Of a stretch of 24,000 nucleotides of DNA, positions 2,885 to 24,000 are shown in pieces (within the stretch, counting starts at the first letter, position 1; every line of letters starts with the position of its first letter). Position numbers and translations under genes: made by a program. The stretch spans positions 83,714-107,713 of the forward strand of contig NZ_JAFKCZ010000008.1 of assembly GCF_017255185.1 (NCBI RefSeq). Direction: 5' to 3'. The notes under the pieces were generated by a model, which searched no databases, was not told the DNA's origin, and saw only the letters and a program-made list of their open reading frames with translations. The DNA comes from Parahaliea mediterranea. GTDB taxonomy: Bacteria; Pseudomonadota; Gammaproteobacteria; Pseudomonadales; Halieaceae.

Positions 2885-3150
2885 CGCCACCCGCCCCCGC
2901 CCTTGCCCCGCGAAGGGTTCTATACTCTGACTATGGCCTGGTTGCACCCCGGGACCCCGGCTGCCGGCTTCAATGGAAGGCGGCCTGTGGCGCCGCCGTT
3001 TCCCACACCCGGACCGGGACCGACAAGCAAGGCAACAAGCGGTTGATTTATATGGATAAATAAACGAAGACCCGGTGCCGCGAGCGCCCCATAGCCAACG
3101 GCAGTTTCCACGCCAGCAGGGTGTGGGAGGCCTGCCCAGAGGAGGTCACC

Positions 3151-9383: not shown

Positions 9384-9458
9384 GGCAGCTCTCCTTCCCG
9401 ATATTATCGTGCTCTTTAAAACCGGCGCCCGGTCAGAACACAGCCGGGGCCTTGAACA

Positions 9459-10913: not shown

Positions 10914-10938
10914 GGTCGACTCCCGATTGAAGGAGCCG

Positions 10939-10958
10939 ATATTTTAAATCTAAAATAT
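10939..10958. promoter_or_regulatory. Operator copy 1: palindrome ATATTTTA-AATC-TAAAATAT overlapping the promoter of the OYE-like gene
   Basis: Perfect 8-bp arms with a 4-bp spacer, 26 bp upstream of ATG 10913. On the minus strand a TTGCAC (10970..10965), an 18-nt spacer and a TAAAAT (10946..10941) form a plausible sigma70 promoter whose -10 lies inside the palindrome. The same motif occurs at 11631 and 22988. Confidence 0.6.
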
Positions 10959-11134
10959 TTTGCTGTGCAAGCCGCGGCGGCGTGTTGGCGCCCATGTCCG
11001 CGAGCGCCGCTTGCCCCCGCCCCACCCCATGCTTGCGCGCGCGACGCTCAACTATCGCGAAATACCTGGCTAGTAACGGGGGAAATGGGCCGCCGCCCGC
11101 GCGAGGGGGCGACGAAATGCGCGGCGGAGGCCGG

Positions 11135-11620
11135 CTATAGCCCCTCTTTTACCCGGCTGAGCAGGACCATCAACTGATCCACCTCAGCAACCTCGAGGTG
11201 CCCCAGCATGCCGATAATCCAGTGCTCGTGCTCCTCGGCCATCTGCGCGAAAGTCCGCGCGCCTTTCGGGGTCAACTTGACCAGCACGGTGCGCCGGTTG
11301 TCCGGCAACGGACTGCGCTCCACCAGGCCCTCGTTGACCAGCTGTGTGGCGATGCCGGAAATATTGCCCCCGGACACCATCATGCGCCGGGACAACTCGC
11401 CCATGGTGAGCCCGTTGGGCGTGCGCTCGAGCTGCGCCAGGAAATCGAAGCGCGGCAGCGTGGTATCGAAGGTTTCGCGCAGCGAGGTGCGCAGGCGCGA
11501 CTCGATCAGGCTGGAGCAGGTCAGCAGACGCAGCCACAGCTTGATGGAGTGGTGATCATCCTCGTGAAGGCGCGTTTCCTGGTCGAGGGTAACAAGTGCT
11601 TGGGGTTCGCTAGTGGCCAT
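11135..11620 (-). CDS. MarR family transcriptional regulator
   Basis: 161 aa with a winged-helix pattern: LPRFDFLAQLERTPNGLTMGELSRRMMVSGGNISGIATQLVNEGLVERSPLPDNRRTVLVKLTPKGARTF. It is divergent from the monooxygenase/reductase operon, with a palindromic site in between. Confidence 0.85.
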   Translation of the reverse strand: MATSEPQALVTLDQETRLHEDDHHSIKLWLRLLTCSSLIESRLRTSLRETFDTTLPRFDFLAQLERTPNGLTMGELSRRMMVSGGNISGIATQLVNEGLVERSPLPDNRRTVLVKLTPKGARTFAQMAEEHEHWIIGMLGHLEVAEVDQLMVLLSRVKEGL

Positions 11621-11630
11621 GTGTCAGTTG

Positions 11631-11650
11631 ATATTTTAAATATAAAATGT
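11631..11650. promoter_or_regulatory. Operator copy 2: ATATTTTAAATATAAAATGT in the divergent marR / monooxygenase-reductase promoter region
   Basis: Imperfect version of the same palindrome (8 of 10 positions symmetric per half). It sits 11 bp upstream of the marR ATG (11620). It also lies just upstream of a plus-strand TATACT (11657..11662) that could serve as the -10 for the 11744 operon. Confidence 0.55.
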
Positions 11651-11743
11651 TTGCGCTATACTGGCATCAAGCTTTAAGCTTAAACTATTATTGCCTGTCT
11701 GGCGACCGCCACTGGCGCCCGACCCTTGAAGAGAGGAATGCCC

Positions 11744-14071
11744 ATGAAAATCGTGTGCCTCGGCGGCGGCCCTTCCGGCCTGTACCTGGCCATCTCCATG
11801 AAGCTGCGCGACCCCTCCCACGACGTCACGGTGTACGAGCGCAACCGCCCGGACGACACCTTCGGCTGGGGCGTGGTGTTCAGCGACCAAACGCTGGAAA
11901 ACCTGATGGCCAATGACCCGGTCAGCGGCGAGCGAATCGCCGGCGAGTTTATCCACTGGGACCTGATCGACTGCTACTTCAAGGGCGAGATGGAGCGCTC
12001 CGACGGCCACGGCTTTATCGGCCTCGGGCGCAAGCGCATGCTGCAGCTGTTGCACGAGCGCTGCCGGGAACTGGGCGTCAAGCTGGAATTCGAGAGTGAA
12101 TTCAGCCCCGAGGACATCGACACCCGCTTTGCCGACGCCGACGTGGTGGTGGCCGCGGACGGCATCAACTCCCGCATCCGCAACGCCGACCTCGAGACCT
12201 TCGATTGCAGCGTCGACGTGCGCCCCAACAAGTTCGTCTGGCTGGGTACCAAGCAGACCTTCCGCGACGCCTTTACCTTTATCTTCGAGGAAACCGAGCA
12301 CGGCTGGATCTGGGCCCACGCCTACCAGTTCGACGAGGAGACCTCCACCTTCATCGTCGAGTGCAACCCCGACGTCTACGACGCCATCGGCTTCGAGCAC
12401 ATGAGCCACGCCGAAAGCGCCGAGACCTGCCGCAAGATCTTCGAGAAGTACCTCGGCGGCCACGAGCTGCTGACCAACTCGGCCCATATCCGCGGTTCCG
12501 CCTGGATCAACTTCCCCCACGTGCTGTGCCGCAACTGGGTGAAAGACGACCGCCTGGTACTGATCGGCGACGCCGCCCACACCGCCCACTTCTCCATTGG
12601 CTCGGGCACCAAGCTGGGCCTGGAAGACGCCATTTCCCTGGCCGATCACCTGACCCGCGACGCCACCATCGGCGAGGCCCTGCACGCCTACCAGGCGGAG
12701 CGCGAGATCGACGCCCTGCGCCTGCAAAACAGCGCGCGCAACGCCATGATCTGGTTCGAGAATGTGCCCCGCTACGCCAAGGCCTTCGACCTGAAGCAGT
12801 TCAACTACTCCATGCTCACCCGCAGCCAGCGGGTGAGCCACGAAAACCTGCGCCTGCGCGACAAGACCTGGCTGGAGGGCATGGAGAAACACCTGGCCAA
12901 GCGCGTGCTGGGCGATGACTTCGACGAGGCCGTGCCGCCCATGTTCCTGCCCTACAAGCTGCGGGACATGAAGCTGATCAACCGCGTGGTGGTGTCGCCG
13001 ATGTCGATGTACAGCGCCGTGGACGGCCAGCCGGACGACTGGCACCTGGTGCACTACGGCGCCCTGGCCAAGGGCGGCGCGGGCCTGGTGTACACCGAGA
13101 TGACCGATGTGTCGCCGGAGGGCCGCATCACCCCCGGGTGCGCCGGCATCTGGAACGACGAGCAGGAAGCGGGCTGGAAACGCATCAACGACTTCGTGCA
13201 CCAGCACACCCAGGCCAGATTCTGCCTGCAGATCGGCCACGCCGGCGCCAAGGGCGCCACCAAGGAGCCCTGGAAGTGGGATCCGGCCATCCTCGACGAG
13301 CCCCTGGACGCCGCCGATCAGTGGCCCCTGGTGTCCGCCTCCGCCATCCCCTACGACAGCTACAGCCCGGTGCCGACGGCGCTGACCCGGGAGATGATGG
13401 ACGAGATCACCGCCCAGCATGTCGCCGCGGCGCAGCGCGCCGAGCGCGCCGGCTTCGACATGATCGAGCTGCACGCCGCCCACGGCTACCTGCTCAGCTC
13501 CTTCATCACCCCGGTAATGAACCAGCGCGACGACGAATACGGCGGCAGCCTGGAGAACCGGTTGCGCTATCCGCTCGAGGTATTCCGCGCCATGCGCGAG
13601 GTGTGGCCGCAGGACAAGCCGATGTCGGTGCGCATCTCCGCCTGCGACTGGATGGCCGAGCAGGGCAACACCGAAGAGGACGCGGTGGCTATCGCCCGCG
13701 CCTTCAGCGAGGCCGGCGCCGACATCATAGACGTGTCCAGCGGCCAGGTTTCCCACGACGCCAAGCCCCTGCCCGGGCGCATGTTCCAGACCCCGTTGTC
13801 GGACCGCATCCGCAACGAGGGCGGGCTCGCCACCATGGCGGTGGGCAACATCTACGAGGTGGACCACGTCAACAGCATCATCGCCGCCGGCCGCGCGGAC
13901 CTGGTGTGCCTGGCGCGGCCGCACCTGGCGGACCCGGCCTGGACCCTGCGCGCCGCCGCGGAAATGGGCCACACCGGCGTCGGCGTGGTCGAACCGCACC
14001 AGTACTTCCTCGGTTACCGCCAGCTCCATATCAACATGGAGCGGGCCCGGGAAATGGCGGCCAACGCATGA
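11744..14071 (+). CDS. Bifunctional aryl-CoA FAD monooxygenase / OYE-type reductase (2-aminobenzoyl-CoA monooxygenase/reductase; salicylyl-CoA 5-hydroxylase-like)
   Basis: ORF 11726..14071(+), trimmed to ATG 11744 (GAGAGGA 6 nt upstream). The N-terminal half is a group-A flavin monooxygenase: [16 protein letters not shown] Rossmann GxGxx[10 protein letters not shown], and [24 protein letters not shown]. The C-terminal half from ~aa 400 is an OYE TIM-barrel: [10 protein letters not shown] and [32 protein letters not shown]. This fusion architecture is the hallmark of the Azoarcus evansii 2-aminobenzoyl-CoA monooxygenase/reductase family. Confidence 0.85.
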
Positions 14072-14826
14072 TACACGCCCTGATCACCGGCGCCGGCAGC
14101 GGCATCGGCGCCGCCATCACCCGCACGCTCGCGGGGCAGGGCTACGCCGTCAGCCTGCTCGGCCGCCGCGAGGCGCCGTTGCAGGCCACCAGCGGGCAGC
14201 TGCCCGAGGGCGCCCGCAGCCACATAGCCACCTGCGATGTCACCGACAGCGACAGCGTCGCGCGCGCCTTCGACAGCGCGCGCGCGGCCCTCGGCGACAT
14301 CGACGTGCTGGTCAACTGCGCCGGCGCGGCGCCCACCACGCCCTTCCACAAACTCGACAGCGCCGGCTGGCGCGCGGTGATGGCGGTGAACCTGGACGGC
14401 GTGTTCAACTGCTGCGCCCAGGTGGTGCCGGCAATGCGCGAGCGCGGCGCCGGACGCATCGTCAATATCGCCAGCACCGCCTCCCTCAAGGGCTATGCTT
14501 ACGTCAGCGCCTACTGCGCGGCCAAGCACGGCGTGCTGGGCCTGACCCGCGCCCTGGCCCTGGAACTGGCGCGCAAGGGCGTAACCGTGAACGCGGTGTG
14601 CCCCGGTTACACCGACACCGATATTATCCGCGACGCCGTGGCCAATATTGTGCAGAAAACCGGCCGCAGCGAGGAGCAGGCGCTGGAGGAGTTCACCCGC
14701 GTCAATCCTCAGGGCCGCCTGATCGACCCGCAGGAAGTGGCGGATACCGTGACCTGGCTGTGCTCCGAGGGCGCGCGCTCGGTCACCGGGCAGGCGATTT
14801 CCATCAGCGGTGGCGAGACCAGCTGA
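14068..14826 (+). CDS. Short-chain dehydrogenase/reductase (probable hydroxyacyl-CoA dehydrogenase of the pathway)
   Basis: The real start is the internal ATG 14068 of track ORF 13138..14826. It forms an ATGA overlap with the upstream stop (14069..14071), suggesting translational coupling. Motifs: [16 protein letters not shown] (TGxxxGxG), NIASTAS...YCAAK (YxxxK). Confidence 0.85.
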
Positions 14827-14862
14827 CGCAACGATTGCAACACAACAACACAGGACCGCAGC

Positions 14863-15675
14863 ATGCAACTATCATCCATGGCGGGCTACCAGGCCACGCA
14901 TTTTCTCTGGGAGGCCGATGAGGGCGTCGCCACCATCACCCTGAACCGCCCCGAGCGCAAGAACCCGTTGACCTTCGATTCCTACGCCGAGCTGCGCGAC
15001 CTGTTTCGCGCGCTGGTGTACGCCGACGACATCCACGCCGTGGTGATCCGCGGCGCCGGCGGTAATTTCTGCTCGGGCGGCGACGTGCACGAGATCATTG
15101 GCCCGCTGACCAAAATGAGCATGAAAGAGCTGCTGGCCTTCACCCGCATGACCGGCGACCTGGTCAAGGCCATGCGCGCCTGCCCGCAGCCCATTGTCAG
15201 CGCGGTCGAGGGCGTGTGCGCCGGCGCCGGCGCCATCGTCGCCATGAGCTCCGACCTGCGCTACGCGGCCCCGGACGCCAAGGTGGCCTTCCTGTTCAAC
15301 CGCGTGGGCCTGGCCGGCTGCGACATGGGGGCCTGCGCCCTGCTGCCGCGCATTATCGGCCAGGGACGCGCCAGCGAGCTGCTCTACTTCGGCCGCGCGA
15401 TGAAAGCCGAGGAAGGCGAGCGCTGGGGCTTTTTCAACGCGGTCAGCGACGACCCCGCCGCGGACGCCCTGAAGGCCGCCCGCCGCATCACCGAGGGCCC
15501 GACCTTCGCCAACGGCATCACCAAGACCCAGCTGCACCAGGAGTGGAACATGTCCGTGGACCAGGCCATCGAGGCGGAAGCCCAGGCCCAGGCCATCTGC
15601 ATGCAGGGCAAGGATTTCGAGCGCGCCTACAACGCCTTCGTCAACAAGCAAACGCCGGTGTTCGAAGGCGACTAG
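14863..15675 (+). CDS. Enoyl-CoA hydratase/isomerase (crotonase) family protein
   Basis: 270 aa. [26 protein letters not shown]...[17 protein letters not shown]...[21 protein letters not shown] is a typical crotonase fold signature. AGGA lies 7 nt upstream of the ATG. Confidence 0.85.
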
Positions 15676-15687
15676 GGGAAATACGCT

Positions 15688-16878
15688 ATGAGCGACAGAA
15701 GCTACCTGCAGTGGCCCTTCCTGGATGACAGCCACCGCGACCTGGAGGCGGTTGTCGACCGCTGGGCCAGCGAGCACATCCCGGCACTGGTGGCCAACGA
15801 GCACGACGACCTCGACGGCACCTGCATCGGCCTGGTGCGCGCCATGGGCGAGGCCGGGATCACCAGCTATGCGGTCCCCGCCAGCGGCGGCGGCGCCCTC
15901 GACAAGCTCAGCGTGCGCAGCCTGTGCCTGATTCGCGAAACCCTCGGCCGGCACCACGCCCTGGCGGACTTTGCCTTCGCCATGCAGGGCCTGGGCTCGG
16001 GCCCGATCTCGCTGTTCGGCAGCGACGCGCAGAAGGAGCGCTTCCTGCCCGACGTGGCGGCGGGTAAAAAACTGTCCGCCTTCGCCCTGTCCGAACCCGA
16101 CGCGGGCTCCGACGTGGCGGCCATGGCCTGCAGCGCCACCCTGGACGGCGACCACTACGTGCTGAACGGGGAAAAGACCTGGATCTCCAACGGCAGCATC
16201 GCGGATTTCTACACCGTGTTCGCGCGCACCGACGAGGCCCCGGGCGCCAAGGGCATCAGTTGCTTTATCGTCGAGGCGGACACCCCCGGTTTCGAGATCG
16301 CCGAGCGCATCGACCTGGTGGCGCCCCACCCCCTGGCCACCCTGCGCTTCACCAACTGCCGGGTACCGGCGGCCAACCGGGTCGGCGAATCCGGCCGCGG
16401 TTTCGGCATCGCCATGGGCACGCTGGACGTGTTCCGCTCCACCGTGGCCGCCGCGGCGCTGGGCATGGCGCGCCGGGCGCTGGATGAAAGCCTGGCCCAC
16501 GTGCAGCAACGCAAGGCCTTCGGCGGCACTCTCGCCGACCTGCAACTGGTGCAGGGCAAGCTGGGGGACATGGCCCTGGCCATCGACAGCAGCGCCCTGC
16601 TGGTCTACCGCTCGGCCTGGACCCGCGACTGCGTCGCCGACCGGGTCACCCGGGAGGCGGCGATGGCCAAGCTACACGCCACCGAGTCGGCGCAACAGGT
16701 GATCGACGCCGCGGTGCAGTTGCACGGCGGCCAGGGCGTGCGCCGCGGGCACATCGTCGAGTCGCTGTACCGGGACATCCGCGCCCTGCGGATCTACGAG
16801 GGCGCCTCGGAAGTGCAGCAGACCATCATCGCCCGCCAGGCCCTGGCGGCCTTTGGCGAGGCCGGCGGACGGTCCTAG
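15688..16878 (+). CDS. Acyl-CoA dehydrogenase
   Basis: 396 aa. [24 protein letters not shown] and the C-terminal [10 protein letters not shown] with the catalytic Glu are classic ACAD motifs. Confidence 0.9.
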
Positions 16879-16997
16879 GCCGCACCCACGCCATCGCCAG
16901 CCCCAAGGGGCGACAGTGGACGCTGTGCGCCGCCCTGGTTTAAGGTAGCGGCGGCGGGCCCCGAGGCCCGCCGTCGTCACCCCACAGGGAACCGCAC

Positions 16998-17459
16998 ATG
17001 AGCCGATACTGGAGCGACCTGCAGCCCGGCGAGACTTTCGCCACCGGCCAGCTGACGCTGGACCGGGAAGCCATTCTCGACTTCGCCGCCGAGTTCGACC
17101 CCCAACCCTACCACCTCGACAACGCCGCAGCGGAAGACTCCATCTTCGGCGGCCTGTGCGCCAGCGGCTGGCAGGTGACGGCGCTGATGATGCGCCTGCT
17201 GACCGACACCCTCCACCAACAGGGCGTGCCGGTCATGGGTATCGACTCGGTCCCCTCCCTGCGCTGGAAGGCGCCGGTGTTCGTCGATGACACGCTCCAG
17301 GGTAAAGTGACCATCCGCGGCGGCGAGAACAACTCGCGACAGGCGGGCTGCGGTCGCACCCACATGGACATCACCGTGCACAACCAGGACGGCCGGCCGG
17401 TCATCGAGCTGAACGCCGTGCTGCTGGTGGCCCACGGGGAGCACAGCGATGCAGCGTAA
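16998..17459 (+). CDS. MaoC-like (R)-specific hydratase hot-dog protein, subunit 1
   Basis: 153 aa. The hydratase-2-like segment FDPQPYHLDNAAAEDSIFGGLCASGW retains both Asp and His. AGGGAA lies 6 nt upstream of the ATG. Confidence 0.8.
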   Translation: MSRYWSDLQPGETFATGQLTLDREAILDFAAEFDPQPYHLDNAAAEDSIFGGLCASGWQVTALMMRLLTDTLHQQGVPVMGIDSVPSLRWKAPVFVDDTLQGKVTIRGGENNSRQAGCGRTHMDITVHNQDGRPVIELNAVLLVAHGEHSDAA

Positions 17460-17964
17460 GCCCTACATCCGCAGCCGCTGGTGGGAGGACATCCCGGTCG
17501 GCGAGTTCCACGTGTTCGGTTCCCACACCTTCAGCGAGCTGGAAATCATCGAGTTCGGCGAGCGCTACGCCCCCGAAATCTACCACACCGACCCGGTGGC
17601 GGCGCGGGATACCCTGCACCGCGGCCTGGTGGCCTCCGGCTGGCACCTGACCGCGACCTGGATGCGCTTGATGGTGGACTACATGGAGCGCTTCGCCCGC
17701 GGCGTGCGCGACGGCCGCCGCAACGGGGCGGGCATGGGCCTGGAGGACCTGGAGTGGTTCGTGCCGGTGCGGCCCGGGCACACCATCACCTTCACCTACG
17801 AGATCACCGAGAAACCCGAGCGCGTGGTGCGCGACCGCTGGGGCATCATTCGCAGCCGCAACGAGGCCTACAACCAGTACAACGAGCTGGTGATGCGGTT
17901 TAACATCGATATTCTCGCGGAGCGCAATCCGGGGGTGGAGGACGGCGGGGCGTTGGCCGAATGA
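17449..17964 (+). CDS. MaoC-like hot-dog protein, subunit 2 (catalytic Asp position replaced)
   Basis: 171 aa. It overlaps the upstream gene by 11 bp, with GGGGAG 7 nt upstream. The equivalent segment YAPEIYHTDPVAARDTLHRGLVASGW has Ala where subunit 1 has Asp. The last codons and the TGA stop (17962..17964) lie inside the first REP hairpin. Confidence 0.75.
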   Translation: MQRKPYIRSRWWEDIPVGEFHVFGSHTFSELEIIEFGERYAPEIYHTDPVAARDTLHRGLVASGWHLTATWMRLMVDYMERFARGVRDGRRNGAGMGLEDLEWFVPVRPGHTITFTYEITEKPERVVRDRWGIIRSRNEAYNQYNELVMRFNIDILAERNPGVEDGGALAE

Positions 17965-18407
17965 ATTCGGCCGAGAAGCGGCGGAATGAATTCCGCCCGA
18001 CGGGGTGACGCCATCCGCGCCGTGTAGGGTCGAATTTATTCGACCGAAAAGCGGCGGAATGAATTCCGCCCTACAGGGGGCGCCACCCGCGCCGTGTAGG
18101 GTCGAATTTATTCGGCCGAGAAGCGGCGGAATGAATTCCGCCCGACGGGGTGACGCCATCCGCGCCGTGTGGGGGCGAATTCATTCGACCGAGAAGCGGC
18201 GGAATGAATTCCGCCCTACAGGGGGCGCCATCCGCGCCGTGTTGGGTCGAATTCATTCGACCGAAAAGCGGCGGAATGAATTCCGCCCTACAGGGGGCGC
18301 CATCCGCGCCGTGTGGGGGCGAATTTATTCGACCGAAAAGCGGCGGAATGAATTCCGCCCTACAGGGGGGCGCCATCCGCGCCGTGTGGGGTCGAATTTA
18401 TTCGACC
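17955..18407. repeat. BIME-like array of 13 alternating REP-type hairpins (about six tandem units of 72-73 bp)
   Basis: 18-bp palindromes of the form GGNNGAAT-NN-ATTCNNCC start at 17955, 17980, 18028, 18053, 18100, 18125, 18173, 18198, 18245, 18270, 18317, 18342 and 18390. The GGTCGAATTTATTCGACC type and the GGCGGAATGAATTCCGCC type alternate. They are separated by a 7-nt linker (GAAAAGC or GAGAAGC) and a conserved ~27-30-nt linker (CTACAGGGGGCGCCATCCGCGCCGTGTAG). Read with their flanks they are one family, TGTAGGG(T/C)(C/G)GAAT..ATTC..CC, in alternating orientation. The array fills the whole gap between convergent genes ending at 17964 and 18413. Confidence 0.9.
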
Positions 18408-18412
18408 ACGGC

Positions 18413-19951
18413 TTACGCCGCCCGATTCGAGGCCTTGGGTTCGCTGCCAGCCGATGATGCCGCCAGCGACTGGCGAAACGCCACGCCATCGTCATCGGCA
18501 AAGGCGGTTTCGCGCCAGTGGGCCACGGCCGCCGCGGACGCCCCGCCCTGCTCCGCCCGCGCCAGGATATCGGCCACCTGGGCGCTGGTGCGCGCGCGGG
18601 TGTCGCCGTATCCCTTCACCAGCCGACCGCACTCCGCCAGCTCGCGGGCCAAATCCAGATCGTCTCCCTGCGCCGCGCGGCGGATCGCCTGCAGCCAGCG
18701 CCCGATCAGCGCGTGCTCCTCGGCGTAGGCGAGACTGCGGCGCCGCCAGCGCCGCAGGCCAGCCAGAATGCGCAGCACCAGGAATACGCCAATGGTATTG
18801 GTGCGCAGCTTCTTGCCGCCGGTGAAGCGGCCGATCACGGCGCTGGCGGGGCGCGAGGATTGCACTGCGCGCCCCAGTCCCGCGGGCAGCATGCCGCAGA
18901 CTTCCTCCACCCGGGGGCGGAAGAACTCGGTCACGTCGAAAAGCTGCCCGGGCTCGGCCTTGACCTCGTCGCGGACCTTGTCCATGCGCGAGGCGCGGGT
19001 TTTCAACTGCGCCACCCGGGGGATATCCTCGAAACACATCCACAGCGCCAGGTAGCGCGCGGTCTCCCGGGTCAACTGGTGGTCGCCGGCGCCGTCATCG
19101 CGCTCGTGAATGTCTTCCAGCTCGTCCAGGTACTGCCCGGCATAGGCGTAGTCCTGGTAGTCCACCAGCTTGAGCAGGCCCCGGTACAGGACCTCGTGAC
19201 AGTTCTCGGGAAAGACCCGCAGGCGCGCCAGCAGCTGCTCGCCCTCGGGGCTGTGCGCTTGCGGCAGCGCAAAGCCCGCGGCCGGCTCCGCCGCCTTGGC
19301 CGGCTCGAACTGCTGGACCCCGCGCGCCTGGGCCGCCTGGTAGCTGGCGTTGAAGGCCGCGAGGTTGGTTTTCACGGCCTTGCCGGAGGCCTCGATGGCG
19401 GCGATGAAACTCTCCCGGCGAAAGGGCAGCACCCCCGAACCGGCCAGCGCCCCCAGCATCACCGCGGAGATCACCGCATTGTGCGCCTTGGCCAGCGCCG
19501 CCATGTCGAAGTGGATGTAATCCCTGGCGTAGCGGCCGGCAATGGCCTGCACCGCGGCGGGGTCGATGGTGCCATCCCCCAGGTTGATCTTCTCGGTGAT
19601 GCCGTAGACCCGGTGATCCGAGGCGATCAGCGTGGTGCGGTCCGGGGTCACAAAGCCCCGCTGCACCATGCGCCCGGCCTCCGCCACTTCCGAGGCAATG
19701 GCCACGTCGATGTCGCCCTGGGCGGGAAACAGGGACATCACCGGCCGCTCGCCCTCGGGGATGTCGCCGCGGGGGTACATCTCCAGGTAGTAAATAGTGG
19801 CGCCGGTGCGCTGGGCCACCCCCGCGAGGAAGGTGCTCTGGCACAGCCAGCCCTCGCTGTTAGCCACGTCGATCACCCAGTTGGTGAATACGCCGCCGCC
19901 CTCGCCACCCAGGGCGGCGACAACCATGTTGATGGTACGTTGTTTGGTCAT
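18413..19951 (-). CDS. iorB: Indolepyruvate/2-oxoacid:ferredoxin oxidoreductase, beta (IorB-like) subunit family protein
   Basis: 512 aa. The N-terminus INMVVAALGGEGGGVFTNWVIDVA...GVAQRTGATIYYLEM...AQGDIDVAIASEVAEAGR is typical of the pyruvate/ketoisovalerate oxidoreductase gamma-type domain of IorB. A long C-terminal extension follows. The ATG 19951 forms an ATGA overlap with the iorA stop. Confidence 0.8.
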   Translation of the reverse strand: MTKQRTINMVVAALGGEGGGVFTNWVIDVANSEGWLCQSTFLAGVAQRTGATIYYLEMYPRGDIPEGERPVMSLFPAQGDIDVAIASEVAEAGRMVQRGFVTPDRTTLIASDHRVYGITEKINLGDGTIDPAAVQAIAGRYARDYIHFDMAALAKAHNAVISAVMLGALAGSGVLPFRRESFIAAIEASGKAVKTNLAAFNASYQAAQARGVQQFEPAKAAEPAAGFALPQAHSPEGEQLLARLRVFPENCHEVLYRGLLKLVDYQDYAYAGQYLDELEDIHERDDGAGDHQLTRETARYLALWMCFEDIPRVAQLKTRASRMDKVRDEVKAEPGQLFDVTEFFRPRVEEVCGMLPAGLGRAVQSSRPASAVIGRFTGGKKLRTNTIGVFLVLRILAGLRRWRRRSLAYAEEHALIGRWLQAIRRAAQGDDLDLARELAECGRLVKGYGDTRARTSAQVADILARAEQGGASAAAVAHWRETAFADDDGVAFRQSLAASSAGSEPKASNRAA

Positions 19952-22128
19952 AGCGTTCCGGCCGCCTGTTGGTCGTCATCGCGCGACTGCATCCAGCCGA
20001 TCACGGTCTGTCGTAACTTGCCCATCATCCGATCGCGCCAGCTGGGGTTGTACACCAGGTCGACGCGGGAAAAGGACGGGCACAGGATCGCCGAGTGCAC
20101 GTTCTCGCCGCACACGCCGCAGCCCACGCAACTGTTGTCGACGTAGGAAACGGGATCCTTGCGCAGGGGGTCCGGGTTGGGCTTGATGGTCAGCGAGGGG
20201 CAGCCCGACAGGCGGATACAGGCGTGATCCCCGGTACAGGTCTCGGCATCCACCATGAAACGGGCACGCAGGGTGCGCTTGCCATCGGCGATGGAGCGCT
20301 TCATCAGCGGCTTGATGCGCCGCTGCCGGTTGAGCATGCACTCGCCCTCGGCGATGATCACCTTGAGGCCGCCCTCGTCGGTGGTCAGCGCCTCGCGCAG
20401 GGTGTTTTTCATCGCCTCGATATTGTAGGTGCTCACGGTGCGAATCCAGCGCACGCCGGCGCCGCGGCAGGCGTCCTCGATCGGCTGCTGGTCCTCCCGT
20501 GCCGGGGCGTCGGTATCGATGGTGGTGGCGATGATCTTGTTCGGCTCCACCAGCGAGGGAATGTCCTGGCCCCCGGTGGCGGCGGCGTAGCCGTTGTCGA
20601 CGATGATCAACAGGCCGTCGTGCTTGTTGAACACGGCACTGGTCACGCCACTGGTCAGGCCGTTGTGCCAGAAGCCGCCGTCGCCCATGATGCTGATCGA
20701 CTTGTGCGGCAGGGTGTGGCGAATACTGGAGGAACTGGCCAGGGACAGGCCGTAACCCATGATGGTATTGCCCAGGTTAAAGGGCGCCAGGGTGGCGAAG
20801 GAGTGACAGCCGATGTCGGAACTGATGTGAAACGGCCCCAGCTCCTTCTGCACCTGCTTGACCGCCGAAAACAGCGGGCGCTCCGGGCACCCGGTGCAGA
20901 GGCCCGACGGCCGCGGCGGCACGTTGCTCAGCAATTCCCGCTGGTCGTCCTCGGACAGCGGTGTTTCCATCGCCGCCACGGCGGCACTGCCCAGCGCCGG
21001 CGTCATACCCGCCGCCTCCAGGAAGCGTGCAATGCCGAGCAGCATCACCTGCCCGGTGTACTCGCCCGCCATCGGCATGATGTCCTTGCCGTACACCCGG
21101 GTCTGCACATCGGCCCGGCGCAGCACCGTATTGATCCCCTGCTCGACATATTCCGGCTGGCCTTCCTCCAGCACCAACACCTGCTTCTTGTCGGCGCAGA
21201 ACTGGACCAGCTCGTCCGGTACCAGCGGGTAGGCCACGTTCATCACGTAGATGGGTATGTCGGAATTGCCGAGTACGTCGGACAGGCCCTGGCGCTGCAG
21301 GGCGCGCACCAGGGTGTTGTAGCAACCCCCCTGTACGATAATGCCGAGGTCGCCGTGCTTGCCGGGGAAGAACTCGTTGAGTTTGCGCTCTTTGATGAAT
21401 TCAATCGCCGCCGGCAGGCGCTGTGCGATTTTCTCGCGCTCGTGGGCGTAGACATTGGGCGGCAGGATGATCTTGTCCGCCTCGCGATTGGGGATGACCG
21501 GATTGCTGTCGCTGTACCGCGGGGGCACGTTGTCGTGGGCGACAAATTCACCCGAAACGTGGCAACCGCGAATCCGCATCATGAAGAACAGCGGCGTATT
21601 GCTGGCCTCCGACAGTTCGAAGCCCTTCTCCACCATGTCCACGATGCTGGGCAGGTTGGGCCTGGGGTCCAACAGCCACATCTGCGCCTTCATGGCGAAG
21701 GCGTAGGTGCGCTCCTGCATGATGCTGGAGCCCTCGCCGTAGTCCTCGCCGACGATCACCATGGCGCCGCCGGTCACGCCGGAGGAGGCCAGGTTGGACA
21801 GGGCGTCCGAGGCGACATTGGTGCCCACGGTGGATTTCCAGGTCACGGCGCCGCGCAGCGGGTAATTGATCGACGCACTGAGCATCGCCGCCGCAGTCGC
21901 CTCGCTGCCCGCCGCCTCGAAGTGTACCCCCAGCTCGCCCAGGATATCCTGGGCGTCGTTGAGCACATCCATCAACGCGGAAATCGGCGCGCCCTGGTAG
22001 CCGCTGACATAGGACACCCCGGACTGCAGCAGCGCCTTGGTGATGGCGAGGATGCCCTCGCCCTTGAACACCTCGCCGTCGCCGGCGCGCAGCTTCAGGA
22101 CTTCCTCGGCAAAGGAACGTTCAGCCAT
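19948..22128 (-). CDS. iorA: Indolepyruvate/2-oxoacid:ferredoxin oxidoreductase, alpha (IorA-like) subunit, TPP and Fe-S binding
   Basis: 726 aa. TPP motif IMGDGGFWHNGLTSGVTSAVFNKHDGLLIIVDNGYAAATGGQ (GDG...N). C-terminal Cys clusters ETCTGDHACIRLSGCPS and NSCVGCGVCGENVHSAILCPS (CxxCxxC...CP). The N-terminal pyrimidine-binding domain reads SGYQGAPIS...GEDYGEGSS. Confidence 0.85.
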   Translation of the reverse strand: MAERSFAEEVLKLRAGDGEVFKGEGILAITKALLQSGVSYVSGYQGAPISALMDVLNDAQDILGELGVHFEAAGSEATAAAMLSASINYPLRGAVTWKSTVGTNVASDALSNLASSGVTGGAMVIVGEDYGEGSSIMQERTYAFAMKAQMWLLDPRPNLPSIVDMVEKGFELSEASNTPLFFMMRIRGCHVSGEFVAHDNVPPRYSDSNPVIPNREADKIILPPNVYAHEREKIAQRLPAAIEFIKERKLNEFFPGKHGDLGIIVQGGCYNTLVRALQRQGLSDVLGNSDIPIYVMNVAYPLVPDELVQFCADKKQVLVLEEGQPEYVEQGINTVLRRADVQTRVYGKDIMPMAGEYTGQVMLLGIARFLEAAGMTPALGSAAVAAMETPLSEDDQRELLSNVPPRPSGLCTGCPERPLFSAVKQVQKELGPFHISSDIGCHSFATLAPFNLGNTIMGYGLSLASSSSIRHTLPHKSISIMGDGGFWHNGLTSGVTSAVFNKHDGLLIIVDNGYAAATGGQDIPSLVEPNKIIATTIDTDAPAREDQQPIEDACRGAGVRWIRTVSTYNIEAMKNTLREALTTDEGGLKVIIAEGECMLNRQRRIKPLMKRSIADGKRTLRARFMVDAETCTGDHACIRLSGCPSLTIKPNPDPLRKDPVSYVDNSCVGCGVCGENVHSAILCPSFSRVDLVYNPSWRDRMMGKLRQTVIGWMQSRDDDQQAAGTL

Positions 22129-22134
22129 ATAAAT

Positions 22135-22926
22135 TTACCCCTGGGGTACCAGCGCCAGCACCCGCGCCGGGCTGCCGGAGCCGTTCTTGATCTTGAGCGG
22201 CGCGGCGATCAGGATCGCGCCGGTGGGCGGCAGCTGGTCCAGGTTGCACAGGCTGGCCAGGCCGCACTTGTTGGCGCCGTGCATCAGGTTGTGGCAGGGA
22301 AACATCGGGTCCTGCGCCGGCGCCTGGCCGGCGTCGGTGCCCACGGTTTCCACGCCGACACCGATCACGTCGCGCTCCTCCGCCAAAAATACCACCGTGG
22401 CCGGATCCCAGCCCGGGGTGTGGCTGCCGTCATCCTGTGCATTAAGGTATTCCTCGTTAGAGGCTTTCTTCGACCAATCGGTGCGGTACAGCACCCAGGA
22501 GCCGGCGGGGATCTCGCCGTGGCGCTCCTCCCAGGCCTTGATGAAATCGACACTCATCAGGAAATCCGGGTCGGCGGCGGATTCCGCCACCGCGTCGATC
22601 ACCACCGCGGGGGCCACAAAACGCTCCGGCGGCAGGGTGTCGGTGGCGTGGTTTTCGTGGTCCTTGCCGGTCACCCAGTGGATGGGCGCGTCGAAGTGGG
22701 TACCGGTGTGCTCGCCGCACTTCAGGTTGTTCCAGTACCAGGCGGGCCCCTTCTCGTCGTAGCGTGAAATCTGCTCCATGCTGAAGGGCCAGGACTCGCC
22801 CCAGCCGAATTCGGTGGGCAACTGAAGGATCGGCGTATCCGGCGACAGCGTGGCTGTCAGGTCGACGATACGCACCTTGCCGCTGGCAAGGCCCAGTGCG
22901 AGTTCAGTCAGAACGGAATCGGTCAT
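22135..22926 (-). CDS. Cyclase-family metal-dependent amidohydrolase (kynurenine formamidase / isatin hydrolase family)
   Basis: ORF 22135..22962(-), trimmed to ATG 22926 (GGGGAGAA 5 nt upstream). It carries the family motif HTGTHFDAPIHW (HxGTHxDxPxH). Only 6 nt separate its stop from the iorA ATG, so the two genes share an operon. Confidence 0.8.
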   Translation of the reverse strand: MTDSVLTELALGLASGKVRIVDLTATLSPDTPILQLPTEFGWGESWPFSMEQISRYDEKGPAWYWNNLKCGEHTGTHFDAPIHWVTGKDHENHATDTLPPERFVAPAVVIDAVAESAADPDFLMSVDFIKAWEERHGEIPAGSWVLYRTDWSKKASNEEYLNAQDDGSHTPGWDPATVVFLAEERDVIGVGVETVGTDAGQAPAQDPMFPCHNLMHGANKCGLASLCNLDQLPPTGAILIAAPLKIKNGSGSPARVLALVPQG

Positions 22927-22982
22927 GCTTATTCTCCCCGGTATGCTGGCTATATTTTCCACGGTTTACCCGCGCTTCGGGT

Positions 22983-23012
22983 GGATTATATTTTAGACCT
23001 AAAATATAATCC
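22983..23012. promoter_or_regulatory. Operator copy 3: perfect 30-bp palindrome GGATTATATTTTAG-AC-CTAAAATATAATCC carrying two divergent TATAAT boxes
   Basis: Perfect 14-bp arms. The core 22988..23007, ATATTTTAGACCTAAAATAT, matches copies 1 and 2. A plus-strand TATAAT at 23005..23010 faces ridA. A minus-strand TATAAT at 22990..22985 faces the cyclase-iorAB operon. Confidence 0.7.
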
Positions 23013-23046
23013 AGTGCCTTAACCGCTAAATCACCTGGAGCACGAT

Positions 23047-23439
23047 ATGCATATCTCCCTGTTACCCGAAGGCTGGCCGCGCCCCAAAGGCTACTCAAAC
23101 GCCATTCTCGCGCGCGGCAACGAGACCATCTTCGTCGGCGGACAGATAGGCTGGAATTCGGATTTCGTATTCGAAAGCAATGACTTCACCGACCAGGTCA
23201 AGCAGGCGCTGACGAATATCACCGACATCCTGGCCAGCGCCGACGCCGGCCCCGAGCACATCACGCGCATGACCTGGTATATCACCGACAAGCAGGCCTA
23301 TGTCAACAACCTCCGCGGCATCGGCGCCGCCTACCGCGAGGTCATGGGCAAGCATTTTCCGGCGATGAGTGTTGTAGAGGTCAGCGCATTGATAGAAGAT
23401 GAGGCCCTCGTGGAAATAGAAGTCACAGCCGTGAAGTGA
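23047..23439 (+). CDS. ridA: RidA/YjgF/L-PSP family enamine/imine deaminase
   Basis: 130 aa. [25 protein letters not shown]...[10 protein letters not shown]...[25 protein letters not shown] is the typical RidA fold sequence. GGAG lies 7 nt upstream of the ATG. Confidence 0.85.
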
Positions 23440-23444
23440 GCCTT

Positions 23445-24000
23445 ATGACAGAAACCGTAAGTTATCGCCGCGATGGCGACATTGGCATCGTTTGTATTGA
23501 CAACCCGCCGGTCAACGCCCTCTCCCACAGTGTGCGCAGCGGGCTGATGGCGGCGCTGGAGCAATCCTCCGCCGACGACAGCCGCGCCCTGGTCGTACAC
23601 TGCGCCGGGCGCACCTTTATCGCCGGCGCGGATATCACCGAGTTTGGCAAGCCGCCCCGGGAGCCCATCCTGGGCGAGGTGCTCGCGCGCCTGGACGCGC
23701 ACGACAAGCTAACCGTGGCGGCCGTGCACGGCACCGCCCTCGGCGGCGGCCTGGAGACCGCCCTGTGCTGCCACTACCGCTGCGCCCTGCCCTCGGCGAA
23801 GGTCGGCCTGCCGGAAGTCAAACTGGGCCTGCTGCCCGGCGCCGGCGGCACCCAGCGCACGCCGCGTCTCACCGGCCTGGAGACCGCCCTGGAACTGATT
23901 ACCAGCGGCAACCCGATGCCCGCCCCGCGGGCCGCCGACGCCGGCCTGGTGGATAAAGTCATCGAGGGCGACGACCTGCTCGCCGGCGCGCTGGCCTACA
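23445..24000 (+). CDS. Multifunctional enoyl-CoA hydratase / 3-hydroxyacyl-CoA dehydrogenase (FadB/FadJ-like), N-terminal part; continues past the window
   Basis: Not in the track because no stop lies in the window. My translation from ATG 23445 gives [142 protein letters not shown]... This is a crotonase domain of the type found at the N-terminus of ~700-aa FadB-like proteins. Confidence 0.8.

Follow-up and report, generated by a model that had tools for sequence, protein, structure and literature searches.

A candidate isatin funnel into the 2-aminobenzoyl-CoA pathway, in which an IorAB-type oxidoreductase may take the place of the aryl-CoA ligase

The window, i.e. the whole stretch of 24,000 nucleotides that was analysed, carries the following features:

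1203-2884: PaaX- and PaaY-like genes, 15 kb from iorAB and without the operator described below
9459-10913, minus strand: OYE-family flavoprotein of 484 aa (PF00724), with an operator upstream
10941-10956: operator 1 (ATTTTAAATCTAAAAT), separated by 28 nt from the OYE-like gene that it precedes
11135-11620, minus strand: MarR-family regulator of the abm type (PF01047/PF12802)
11633-11648: operator 2 (ATTTTAAATATAAAAT), in the intergenic region of marR and the monooxygenase/reductase operon; Parahaliea and Luminiphilus have it conserved
11744-14071, plus strand: fused FAD monooxygenase/OYE reductase of the 2-aminobenzoyl-CoA monooxygenase/reductase type (ACMR; PF01494, PF00724)
14068-17964, plus strand: lower-pathway genes in an SDR-ECH-ACAD order syntenic with abm-type operons, comprising the next four lines
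14068-14826, plus strand: SDR
14863-15675, plus strand: enoyl-CoA hydratase
15688-16878, plus strand: acyl-CoA dehydrogenase
16998-17459 and 17449-17964, plus strand: two MaoC genes
17958-18407: 72-bp tandem repeat array (6.2 copies) with internal inverted repeats, which takes up the space where the convergent MaoC and iorB genes face each other
18413-19951, minus strand: IorB-like beta subunit (IadB homologue), 512 aa, POR domain (PF01558) and DUF6537 (PF20169)
19948-22128, minus strand: IorA-like alpha subunit (IadA homologue), 726 aa, TPP/Fe-S 2-oxoacid oxidoreductase with a TPP_enzyme_C domain
22135-22926, minus strand: predicted isatin hydrolase (IadI homologue), 263 aa, cyclase fold with a Mn-type metal motif (PF04199, PDB matches, motifs)
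22982-23013: operator 3, a perfect 15+15 palindrome located where the hydrolase gene and ridA have their divergent promoters
23047-23439, plus strand: RidA-family protein (PF01042), a conserved member of abm-type clusters
23445-24000, plus strand: N-terminal part of a FadB-like enoyl-CoA hydratase/3-hydroxyacyl-CoA dehydrogenase (ECH_1), which leaves the window

The operon on the minus strand corresponds to open reading frames at 22135-22962 (with a GTG start), 19948-22128 and 18413-19951. The stop codon of the cyclase-family gene ends at 22135 and the iorA ATG begins at 22128, leaving a gap of 6 nt, and the iorB ATG (19951-19949) extends across the iorA TGA (19950-19948) in an ATGA overlap. 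As judged from this spacing, the hydrolase, iorA and iorB genes are translationally coupled, and the three-gene arrangement given in a preliminary description of this DNA is borne out in its coordinates, gap and overlap. A Shine-Dalgarno sequence, GGGGAGA, is found 5' of the ATG at 22926, and as the homologues are about 263 aa long in all 120 matches listed, the real hydrolase gene spans 22135-22926 and encodes 263 aa, which is the size initially assigned to it.

The homology evidence supports well that this hydrolase is an isatin-hydrolase-type enzyme. It matches the Cyclase family (PF04199) with E = 2e-40, and the previously noted HxGTHxDxPxH pattern reads HTGTHFDAPIH. The closest PDB entry is 5NMP, the isatin hydrolase of Ralstonia (E = 2e-106, ~60% identity), with 5NNA/5NNB at 1e-94 (~57% identity to 5NNB) and 4J0N at 5e-89. 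Isatin hydrolases and kynurenine formamidases (KynB) had both been considered as relatives, and the comparison by HMM and motif places the enzyme with the former: it scores 35.9 bits with the KynB equivalog TIGR03035 (cutoff 223), KynB chains in the PDB match at E ~1e-6 as opposed to 1e-106 for the isatin hydrolase, and it carries the GLAS signature of isatin hydrolases and not the I(L/I)E of KynB (signatures defined in PMC6117287). The KynB identity was rejected on the basis of the subthreshold TIGR03035 score and the GLAS signature.

The trio is homologous to iadI, iadA and iadB of the iad auxin-degradation locus, which has been published (PMC9613470) and whose genes are tabulated in PMC12852158. 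Identities to the Variovorax proteins are 55% for IadI, 59% for IadA and 46% for IadB, and the gene adjacency is the same. A step from isatin to isatinate had been suggested for the operon at the outset; the hydrolase fits this step, but it had been overlooked that the genes resemble iadI, iadA and iadB and that an iad route through isatin and then isatinate (isatinic acid) is already accepted chemistry (PMC9613470). In the literature covered, to which the naming paper of iadA-R (Nascimento et al. 2021) does not belong, no function is assigned to IadA or IadB. In B. japonicum, IAA under air induces iorA 31-fold and iorB 7.6-fold (PMC3788728). The IadCDEFGHJ module adjoins the cluster in Parahaliea and was not seen inside the window. 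As a point against the funnel proposed below, some hydrolase-containing iad clusters lack IorAB within 10 kb, e.g. in Roseibium and in Azospirillum, where IorB is 18 kb away.

With respect to the oxidoreductase, IorB reaches 603 bits with NF006179 (cutoff 348), and it attains at most 40 bits with canonical IorB equivalogs (cutoff 237), while IorA remains with 278 bits under the cutoff of 651 of IOR_alpha (TIGR03336). No PDB relative of IorA was found by sequence. The TPP motif GDGGF...N and 12 cysteines of IorA are invariant across 79 homologues. These cysteines suffice for three built-in clusters, and the lack of a free-standing ferredoxin gene, which the preliminary description had pointed out and which holds for 9459-24000, therefore carries little weight.

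The fused monooxygenase/OYE protein scores 1207 bits with NF006101 (cutoff 1078) and is 57-62% identical to the enzymes of ligase-containing clusters of Ralstonia and Marinovum; the Marinovum cluster adjoins genes for tryptophan 2,3-dioxygenase and kynureninase. RidA shares 50-59% identity with RidA proteins that Ralstonia, Phyllobacterium and Aminobacter encode within their ACMR operons, and the FadB-like orthologue in Parahaliea is a full-length protein of 704 aa with ECH and 3HCDH domains. The MarR protein shares 53% identity with its counterpart in the ACMR-ligase operon of Ralstonia, as compared to 25% with the MarR of the Roseibium iad locus. Exact matches to ATTTTA-N4-TAAAAT occur three times in the window, with 0.00 expected from 100 shuffles, and Parahaliea, Luminiphilus and uncultured relatives have the sites at matching positions, in agreement with the early proposal that the hydrolase-iorAB and monooxygenase operons have an operator in common. 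Operator 3, TGGATTATATTTTAG-AC-CTAAAATATAATCCA, overlaps -10-like hexamers and is kept in 7 related loci. The abm-type MarR is presumed to be the repressor that binds the three predicted operators, and it would thus act on ATTTTA-N4-TAAAAT at three promoter regions serving five transcription units. The 484-aa OYE-like protein is likely a further member of this regulon; its homologues (60-89% identity) accompany ACMR/IorAB in 9 loci. Operator 1 upstream of its gene was absent from the sites listed originally.

We propose, with a probability of roughly 60%, that the operon is an isatin funnel into the aerobic "hybrid" 2-aminobenzoyl-CoA pathway, in which IorAB replaces the ligase. In the source host, a marine gammaproteobacterium of the Halieaceae, this funnel would have two steps. 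The Mn-type isatin hydrolase would open the lactam of isatin or a relative thereof (e.g. dioxindole), yielding isatinate (2-aminophenylglyoxylate), and the IorAB-like TPP/[4Fe-4S] enzyme may then oxidatively decarboxylate isatinate with CoA to 2-aminobenzoyl-CoA and CO2, the electrons passing via its three built-in clusters to an acceptor. The IorAB-type pair thus probably makes 2-aminobenzoyl-CoA directly from an indole/auxin breakdown product, and this step would stand in for the ATP-dependent 2-aminobenzoate-CoA ligase of canonical clusters. The IorAB enzyme family is known to form acyl-CoA products, and the phenylglyoxylate:acceptor oxidoreductase of Azoarcus evansii, which makes benzoyl-CoA, is a chemical precedent. 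By homology, the fused monooxygenase/reductase would hydroxylate and reduce the ring, and SDR, hydratase, acyl-CoA dehydrogenase, MaoC, FadB-like and OYE-like enzymes would carry out a beta-oxidation-like breakdown, with RidA probably handling an enamine or imine intermediate. Indole-3-acetic acid may be the source of the isatin, by way of the IadCDEFGHJ module. Given the homology of the three genes to iadI, iadA and iadB, the same conversion of isatinate to 2-aminobenzoyl-CoA is also proposed for IadAB in general.

The genes recur together in other genomes: in 47 IorB-seeded loci with full flanks, the hydrolase is present in 33, the fused monooxygenase in 19, the iad oxygenase module in 15, and none of these in 6. 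That an O2-dependent monooxygenase goes together with a TPP/Fe-S enzyme was initially regarded as unusual, but for this subfamily it is not: the combination is found in 23/80 IorB-seeded loci (e.g. in Variovorax, sphingomonads and Halieaceae). A 2-aminobenzoate-CoA ligase orthologue lies within 10 kb in only one of 28 loci that have IorAB and ACMR; this locus carries an IorAB of the outgroup clade, and for the hydrolase-linked clade the corresponding count is 0/27 ACMR loci. In contrast, ACMR loci without IorAB, a small control set (n=11) chosen from plasmids, have the ligase in or adjoining the operon in 8/11 cases, and 3/11 have no nearby ligase. The contrast of 1/28 to 8/11 (Fisher p = 2e-5, uncorrected for phylogeny and from counts that are not independent) fits the idea, already put forward in the preliminary description, that IorAB takes the place of the aryl-CoA ligase. 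In a Steroidobacteraceae locus (L018), a canonical ACMR-SDR-MarR-ECH-ACAD-RidA operon lacking only the ligase is divergent to hydrolase-iorA-iorB. Moreover, a gene for a 4HBT-type thioesterase directly follows iorB on its 3' side in Burkholderia, Caballeronia, Pseudomonas gessardii, Xenorhabdus and Paraburkholderia, and its presence in several lineages implies that IorAB yields a CoA ester. An outgroup IorAB on a Variovorax plasmid, with a mandelate-racemase-like enolase and an alpha-hydroxy-acid oxidase encoded beside it, is likewise in keeping with an aryl-glyoxylate substrate.

Could the aryl-CoA nevertheless come from a ligase whose gene lies beyond position 24000 or at a different locus, with isatinate being converted to free anthranilate by other enzymes and IorAB being accessory, redundant or unrelated? 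The strong build-up of C8H7NO3 in a strain with iadC-K2 and without iadAB counts in favour of the funnel (PMC12633357). On the other side, Variovorax iadC-K2 without iadAB still gives free anthranilate, which is the reported product, and not the CoA ester (PMC12633357); isatinate thus can be converted in the absence of an IorAB-type enzyme. In line with a ligase elsewhere, a 2-aminobenzoate-CoA-ligase-type gene lies ~6 kb from iorAB-thioesterase-hydrolase in a Paraburkholderia locus (L035), and three control clusters also manage without a nearby ligase. The initial statement that there is no aryl-CoA ligase holds for 9459-24000, where no AMP-binding ligase was found, but past the window end the closest sequenced relative, Parahaliea mediterranea, has an AMP-binding gene two genes beyond ridA-fadB. 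This ligase is 47-50% identical to IadF and only 24-25% to 2-aminobenzoate-CoA ligases; it is thus of the IadF type and does not refute the replacement of an anthranilate ligase. In a 90%-identical relative the operon stops after fadB without a ligase, and together with the 0/27 count this makes a ligase elsewhere unlikely.

It is rather improbable that IorAB is an indolepyruvate/arylpyruvate:ferredoxin oxidoreductase that acts after transamination of tryptophan or phenylalanine to make indoleacetyl-CoA or phenylacetyl-CoA, and that is next to the hydrolase only by a common indole theme. Family-level IOR homology, the occurrence in iad loci that degrade indole-3-acetate and the PaaX-/PaaY-like genes of the window would agree with such a role, but the canonical cutoffs are missed by far, the latter genes are distant and without operator, and the regulon in the window has neither an aminotransferase nor an enzyme that uses indoleacetyl-CoA. 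Such a role also does not account for the translational coupling to the hydrolase, and it leaves the displacement of the ligase and the adjacent thioesterase and aryl-CoA hydroxylase genes unexplained.

Even less probable is a decarboxylation of isatinate by IorAB without thioester formation, giving 2-aminobenzaldehyde or free anthranilate for subsequent activation or excretion. Free anthranilate and C7H7NO (by its formula consistent with 2-aminobenzaldehyde, which is not named in the preprint) were found in Variovorax, but both accumulate in the strain without iadAB. The regulon has neither an aldehyde dehydrogenase nor a ligase, and the thioesterase genes point to a CoA ester. This also agrees with the acyl-CoA-forming nature of the enzyme family. 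The formylkynurenine route of the preliminary description, in which a kynurenine formamidase and a transamination precede the formation of 2-aminobenzoylacetyl-CoA by IorAB and its thiolysis to 2-aminobenzoyl-CoA, is very improbable. The fold family and metal motif are indeed common to KynB and some abm-type clusters adjoin kynA/kynU, but the TIGR03035 score, PDB matches and GLAS signature speak against KynB, the window has no aminotransferase or thiolase, and the clusters with kynA/kynU carry the ligase and no IorAB.

For the hydrolase-IorAB operon we favour, with a probability of about 0.6, a mechanism in which an isatin hydrolase supplies IorAB and IorAB in turn supplies a 2-aminobenzoyl-CoA pathway. 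Isatin, or a closely related lactam, would be opened to isatinate by the hydrolase, IorAB would convert isatinate and CoA to 2-aminobenzoyl-CoA and CO2, and this thioester would enter ring hydroxylation/reduction and then beta-oxidation-like steps, with one MarR repressor controlling all of them. What the sequence shows directly is the gene anatomy, the operators, the family memberships and the conserved neighbourhoods, and we regard the parts as identified almost beyond doubt; the IorAB step and what follows it we infer from context.

Genes of the hydrolase-IorAB operon
22135-22926, minus strand: cyclase-fold hydrolase, 263 aa
19948-22128, minus strand: IorA-like protein, 726 aa
18413-19951, minus strand: IorB-like protein, 512 aa

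With a G+C content of 64-70% across the window, long shadow ORFs are abundant and the real genes were picked by homology; long antisense ORFs such as 11636-14029 (minus) and 20095-22767 (plus) were set aside as shadows of real genes in this 66% G+C DNA. The longest hydrolase ORF begins with a GTG at 22962, the ATG at 22926 is preceded by a GGGGAGA ribosome-binding site, and nearly all homologues among the 120 matches listed have 260-264 aa. The 6-nt gap between the hydrolase gene and iorA and the ATGA overlap of iorA with iorB, as given in the preliminary description, are both exact in the sequence. The hydrolase matches the Cyclase profile PF04199 over its full length (138.5 bits, E = 2e-40), and the Pfam/NCBIfam models place TPP_enzyme_C in IorA and POR with DUF6537 in IorB. 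With the canonical IOR-alpha model TIGR03336 (cutoff 650.9), IorA reaches 278 bits, and IorB reaches at most 39.9 bits with the equivalog models of a beta subunit of about 200 aa (cutoff 237). IorB is 512 aa long with its DUF6537 extension, and the one model whose cutoff it exceeds is that of the subfamily, NF006179 (603 bits, cutoff 348). The thiamine motif GDGGF...N and 12 cysteines are invariant across 79 IorA homologues. Judged by these domains and scores, IorAB belongs to the 2-oxoacid:ferredoxin oxidoreductase superfamily and is not the canonical indolepyruvate enzyme. As the 12 IorA cysteines suffice for three [4Fe-4S] clusters, the missing separate ferredoxin gene is uninformative. Sequence searches of the PDB with IorA and with IorB found no relatives, and an Rfam scan of the window gave zero matches.

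The entire gap between iorB and the convergent MaoC gene (17958-18407) is filled by 6.2 copies of a 72-bp unit (91% matches) with internal inverted repeats. The array translates to repetitive "EFIRP..GGMNSALQG" pseudo-ORFs and resembles either a bidirectional terminator or an array of the REP type.

For the hydrolase, the best match among all PDB chains is the isatin hydrolase of Ralstonia solanacearum (5NMP, E = 2e-106, about 60% identity), together with the Labrenzia isatin hydrolases A (5NNA/5NNB, E = 1e-94, about 57% identity to 5NNB) and B (4J0N, E = 5e-89), whereas several kynurenine formamidases in the PDB reach only E = 2e-6 to 8e-5. The isatin hydrolase metal motif HxG[T/A]HxDxPxH (PMC6117287) is present as HTGTHFDAPIH. 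The signature GLQC or GLAS of isatin hydrolases, which is replaced by I(L/I)E in KynB (PMC6117287), appears as GLAS in the context KCGLASLCN. Fold, length, metal motif and signature motif are thus common to the window hydrolase and the crystallised enzymes LaIHA, LaIHB and RsIHA (PDB 5NNA/5NNB, 4J0N/4M8D and 5NMP; PMC6117287); RsIHA has GLQC and LaIHB GLAS, and the window hydrolase has GLAS, yet is closest overall to RsIHA. By strong homology, this Mn-type hydrolase would convert isatin (or a closely related lactam) to isatinate, and the first half of the originally proposed isatin route is thereby supported at the sequence level. An alternative route had been considered in which a KynB-type enzyme hydrolyses formylkynurenine to kynurenine; the GLAS signature in place of I(L/I)E argues against it, as does the score of 35.9 bits against the KynB equivalog model TIGR03035 (cutoff 223), on which a KynB identity was rejected. 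The paper on the crystallised isatin hydrolases (PMC6117287) mentions no operon, gene cluster, ferredoxin, oxidoreductase, anthranilate or MarR in its text and does not address a downstream physiological partner.

The palindrome between the hydrolase gene and ridA is perfect and has the core ATTTTA-N4-TAAAAT, which occurs in three exact copies in the 24 kb, against 0.00 expected.

Operator sites in the window
22982-23013: operator between the hydrolase gene and ridA
11633-11648: operator between marR and the fused monooxygenase gene
10941-10956: operator 28 nt upstream of the OYE-like gene

These sites overlap -10-like hexamers, and their placement is conserved in Parahaliea, in three Luminiphilus lineages and in uncultured relatives. 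The operator shared by the hydrolase-IorAB operon and the monooxygenase cluster, as first described, is borne out by the exact cores and the conserved sites, and there is one operator more than had been listed. The MarR protein (11135-11620) shares 53% identity with its counterpart within the monooxygenase-ligase operon of Ralstonia, but only 25% with the MarR of a Roseibium iad cluster. Since the operators are common to the operon and the monooxygenase gene, and since the MarR is of the type found in aerobic 2-aminobenzoyl-CoA (abm-type) clusters, the hydrolase-IorAB operon is, as read from these sites, wired to a 2-aminobenzoyl-CoA-type pathway regulator. The OYE-family flavoprotein (9459-10913, 484 aa) that has its own operator is found together with monooxygenase/IorAB genes at 9 other loci (60-89% identity), and it probably acts in the lower pathway without having been recognised as part of it.

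Clusters of the abm type have been described for Azoarcus evansii. The fused FAD monooxygenase/OYE reductase of the window (11744-14071, plus strand) scores 1207 bits against NF006101 (cutoff 1078), a family named for salicylyl-CoA 5-hydroxylase, and it is accompanied by SDR, ECH, ACAD, RidA and MarR genes; the syntenic genes are 40-73% identical to their counterparts in the control clusters. With abm-type clusters of Ralstonia solanacearum, Paracoccus, Phyllobacterium, Marinovum and Limnohabitans, the window has a monooxygenase of 57-62% identity, the SDR, the enoyl-CoA hydratase, the acyl-CoA dehydrogenase, RidA, the FadB-like protein and the MarR type in common. In those clusters, the operon includes a 2-aminobenzoate-CoA ligase and frequently a thioesterase as well, and several are fed by kynA/kynU, whereas the window has no ANL-family match at E <= 1e-6 and hence no candidate for the 2-aminobenzoate-CoA ligase of an abm cluster; here, the hydrolase and IorAB under the same operator would fill the role of the ligase.

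The same fused enzyme family also serves the salicylyl-CoA/gentisate route known from the Streptomyces sdg genes, in which the CoA ester is hydroxylated and hydrolysed and the ring is cleaved, a logic that is mirrored by the Burkholderia-type relatives (iorAB-thioesterase-hydroxylase-cupin dioxygenase-FAH). In contrast, the window has a beta-oxidation-like branch and no cupin dioxygenase, and its monooxygenase presumably acts on the amino and not the hydroxy analogue, i.e. on 2-aminobenzoyl-CoA rather than salicylyl-CoA. The closest homologues of the monooxygenase adjoin an annotated 2-aminobenzoate-CoA ligase or kynA/kynU.

The replacement of the ligase was assessed by an IorB alignment scan with one genome per species, which gave 80 loci whose neighbours were scored by tblastn against 39 reference proteins. 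Flanks of 8 kb or more on either side are available for 47 loci; among these, an isatin hydrolase lies near IorB in 33, the fused monooxygenase/reductase in 19 and the iad Rieske/IadF/IadG module in 15, and six have neither hydrolase, monooxygenase nor iad module.

Four recurrent architectures of IorAB loci
Variovorax type: iorA-iorB-iadCDEFGH-hydrolase-iadJ
Window type: hydrolase-iorAB beside monooxygenase-SDR-(MarR)-ECH-ACAD-RidA
Burkholderia type: iorAB-thioesterase-monooxygenase-cupin dioxygenase-FAH-C-N hydrolase-maleate isomerase, with MarR and hydrolase nearby
Paraburkholderia type: iorA-iorB-thioesterase-hydrolase

A 2-aminobenzoate-CoA-ligase orthologue occurs within 10 kb in only one of the 28 distinct loci that combine IorAB with the monooxygenase, and this locus has an IorAB from the outgroup clade; three further loci of the 28 have an IadF-type ligase as part of the auxin side-chain module. 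In monooxygenase clusters without IorAB, by contrast, the orthologue is found in or beside the operon in 8 of 11 (Fisher's exact test, p = 2e-5, with shared ancestry uncorrected and a small control sample), these controls being taken from plasmids and chromids of Ralstonia, Paracoccus, Rhodococcus, Phyllobacterium, Marinovum, Limnohabitans, Burkholderia, Arthrobacter, Aminobacter, Novosphingobium and Ensifer. A FadB-seeded metagenome scan returned generic FadB paralogues only, none with the monooxygenase, and was left out as a control. The clearest single case is a Steroidobacteraceae locus (L018), in which the canonical operon lacks the ligase alone and faces hydrolase-iorA-iorB. Because a thioesterase gene directly follows iorB in several lineages, the context implies that the IorAB product would be a CoA ester. 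One outgroup IorAB adjoins an alpha-hydroxy-acid oxidase and a mandelate-racemase-like gene, which suggests aryl-glyoxylates as the kind of substrate for this IorAB family.

Several loci of the scan deserve mention in their own right. One cluster without a ligase, in the order iorA-iorB-thioesterase-fused hydroxylase-cupin dioxygenase-FAH-C-N hydrolase-maleate isomerase, is common to Burkholderia, Caballeronia, Pseudomonas gessardii, Xenorhabdus stockiae and Paenalcaligenes (loci L006, 1-10774; L010, 9815-22201; L033; L082; L051) and reads like an undescribed ring-cleavage route from isatinate via 5-hydroxyanthranilate. On a Variovorax boronicumulans plasmid (L008, 13797-24373), outgroup IorAB genes stand with an ABC transporter, an enolase of the mandelate-racemase-like kind and an alpha-hydroxy-acid oxidase, and may form a route from mandelate through phenylglyoxylate to benzoyl-CoA. 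Five loci (L054, L065, L068, L070 and L089) form a separate IorA clade, in which the hydrolase, the monooxygenase and the iad genes are all missing within 10 kb.

The preliminary description had seen no aryl-CoA ligase of this regulon between 9459 and 24000. Exact-protein look-ups with RidA and the hydrolase, and a 39-mer exact search of metagenome contigs, found no match that would extend the sequence past 24000. In Parahaliea, the operon continues as ridA-fadB-AMP ligase-thiolase-DUF35-SDR-Rieske alpha-Rieske beta, so that a ligase does lie downstream, but it is not an anthranilate ligase: it shares 47-50% identity with the IadF proteins of Roseibium and Variovorax, against just 24-25% with 2-aminobenzoate-CoA ligases. 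By this relationship, it is predicted to serve the removal of the acetate side chain from oxidised indole-3-acetic acid (IAA) and not the activation of anthranilate. In another close relative, whose hydrolase is 90% identical, the operon stops after fadB.

IadF is one product of the iad loci for degradation of the auxin IAA, which comprise the MarR regulator iadR, the IorA-like iadA, the IorB-like iadB, the reductase iadC, the Rieske oxygenase iadD and iadE, the AMP ligase iadF, the thiolase iadG, the SDR iadH, the cyclase iadI and the SDR iadJ (PMC12852158, PMC9613470), and in which isatin is converted through isatinic acid to anthranilic acid, with iadA/iadB as exclusive markers (PMC9613470). 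The window hydrolase, IorA and IorB are 55%, 59% and 46% identical to Variovorax IadI, IadA and IadB, and the window IorA falls in the same large clade as Variovorax IadA, with the hydrolase adjacent, which makes the pair members of the IadA/IadB group. The iadCDE, iadF, iadG and iadH module is absent from the 24-kb window; it adjoins the cluster in Parahaliea and is absent after fadB in the other close relative. The best hydrolase matches (Kineobactrum, Chromatocurvus, Luminiphilus) place the organism in the marine Halieaceae, with Parahaliea mediterranea DSM 21924 as the closest genome. Like the window, the iad loci of Variovorax paradoxus, Achromobacter and Bradyrhizobium japonicum have a MarR repressor with an upstream operator, and isatin and isatinic acid are their intermediates (PMC9613470, PMC12633357, PMC12852158). 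They differ in gene order, as the window has a compact hydrolase-iorA-iorB operon without Rieske oxygenase, IadF, IadG and IadH, in their IAA-binding IadR-type MarR as opposed to the abm type, and in their root-associated as opposed to marine Halieaceae hosts. Moreover, a full 2-aminobenzoyl-CoA dearomatisation pathway adjoins the window cluster, and no such pathway appears within 10 kb of the Variovorax loci. The "iad" genes of Pseudomonas sp. LY1 were rejected as a guide, as they carry the same letters in another organisation (iadHABICDEFG) tied to catechol/protocatechuate genes (PMC8383072).

In the literature that could be searched, no role is assigned to iadA/iadB. Isatinate has the formula C8H7NO3. 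A 2025 preprint gives roles to IadC-J without mentioning IadA/IadB, finds iadC-K2 enough for anthranilate production, and records a strong build-up of C8H7NO3 and C7H7NO only in iadC-K2 strains, which were made in a whole-locus deletion background (PMC12633357). In B. japonicum, iorA is induced 31-fold and iorB 7.6-fold by IAA (PMC3788728). That anthranilate is reached in Variovorax without iadAB (PMC12633357) counts against the IorAB route, as do some iad clusters without IorAB nearby and a ligase that may be encoded elsewhere in the genome. In Paraburkholderia (L035 and L066, about 7700-13500), there is a compact iorA-iorB-thioesterase-isatin hydrolase module that would take isatin to free anthranilate through the CoA ester, and a module of this type could explain anthranilate as the measured product of iad strains.

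The reaction proposed for IorAB is of the type catalysed by phenylglyoxylate:acceptor oxidoreductase in anaerobic phenylacetate metabolism of Azoarcus/Thauera, a TPP/Fe-S enzyme of five subunits that converts an aryl-glyoxylate and CoA to aroyl-CoA and CO2. The likeness drawn here is in the type of reaction, and the window IorAB has two subunits, a DUF6537 extension and an aerobic host, in contrast to five subunits and anaerobic hosts. That IadAB-type "IorAB" proteins are oxygen-tolerant isatinate:acceptor oxidoreductases, which would make 2-aminobenzoyl-CoA without ATP, is an assignment to which we give slightly better than even odds. To our knowledge, ATP-free aryl-CoA formation by a TPP/Fe-S enzyme is confined to anaerobes; here it would take place in aerobes, which in several proteobacterial classes would have a TPP/Fe-S decarboxylase in exchange for the aryl-CoA ligase.

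Neither the parts nor the two flanking pathways are new. No literature link of isatin hydrolase or isatinate to IOR or 2-aminobenzoyl-CoA was found, and the junction, with hydrolase-IorAB in place of the ligase under an abm-type regulator, and the specific function implied for IadAB appear new as far as the searchable literature goes. If the assignment is true, the marker genes iadA/iadB of the auxin-degrading iad locus gain a function, and the product of the iad branch is a CoA ester and not free anthranilate. The iad loci are studied because root bacteria use them to remove auxin and rescue plant root growth. The window and its relatives offer a testable assignment for iadA/iadB, isatinate + CoA -> 2-aminobenzoyl-CoA, which would account for the entry of auxin- or indole-derived isatin into a complete catabolic pathway, and they extend iad-type genes to abundant marine Halieaceae, for which algal or bacterial indoles are plausible substrates.

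Further to the left in the window, a TonB-dependent receptor (3121-5394) has as its neighbours a protein of the penicillin-amidase family (5480-7996) and an amidase convergent with the latter (7971-9383), with no operator found around 5480-9383. The amidase is 53% identical to an annotated indoleacetamide hydrolase on a Variovorax plasmid, and a "penicillin G amidase" (iadL) is likewise listed for the Variovorax iad locus; the pair could free indole acids from amides or conjugates. At the left end (1203-2884), genes for a PaaY-like hexapeptide-repeat protein and a PaaX-family regulator suggest a phenylacetyl-CoA-type cluster upstream.
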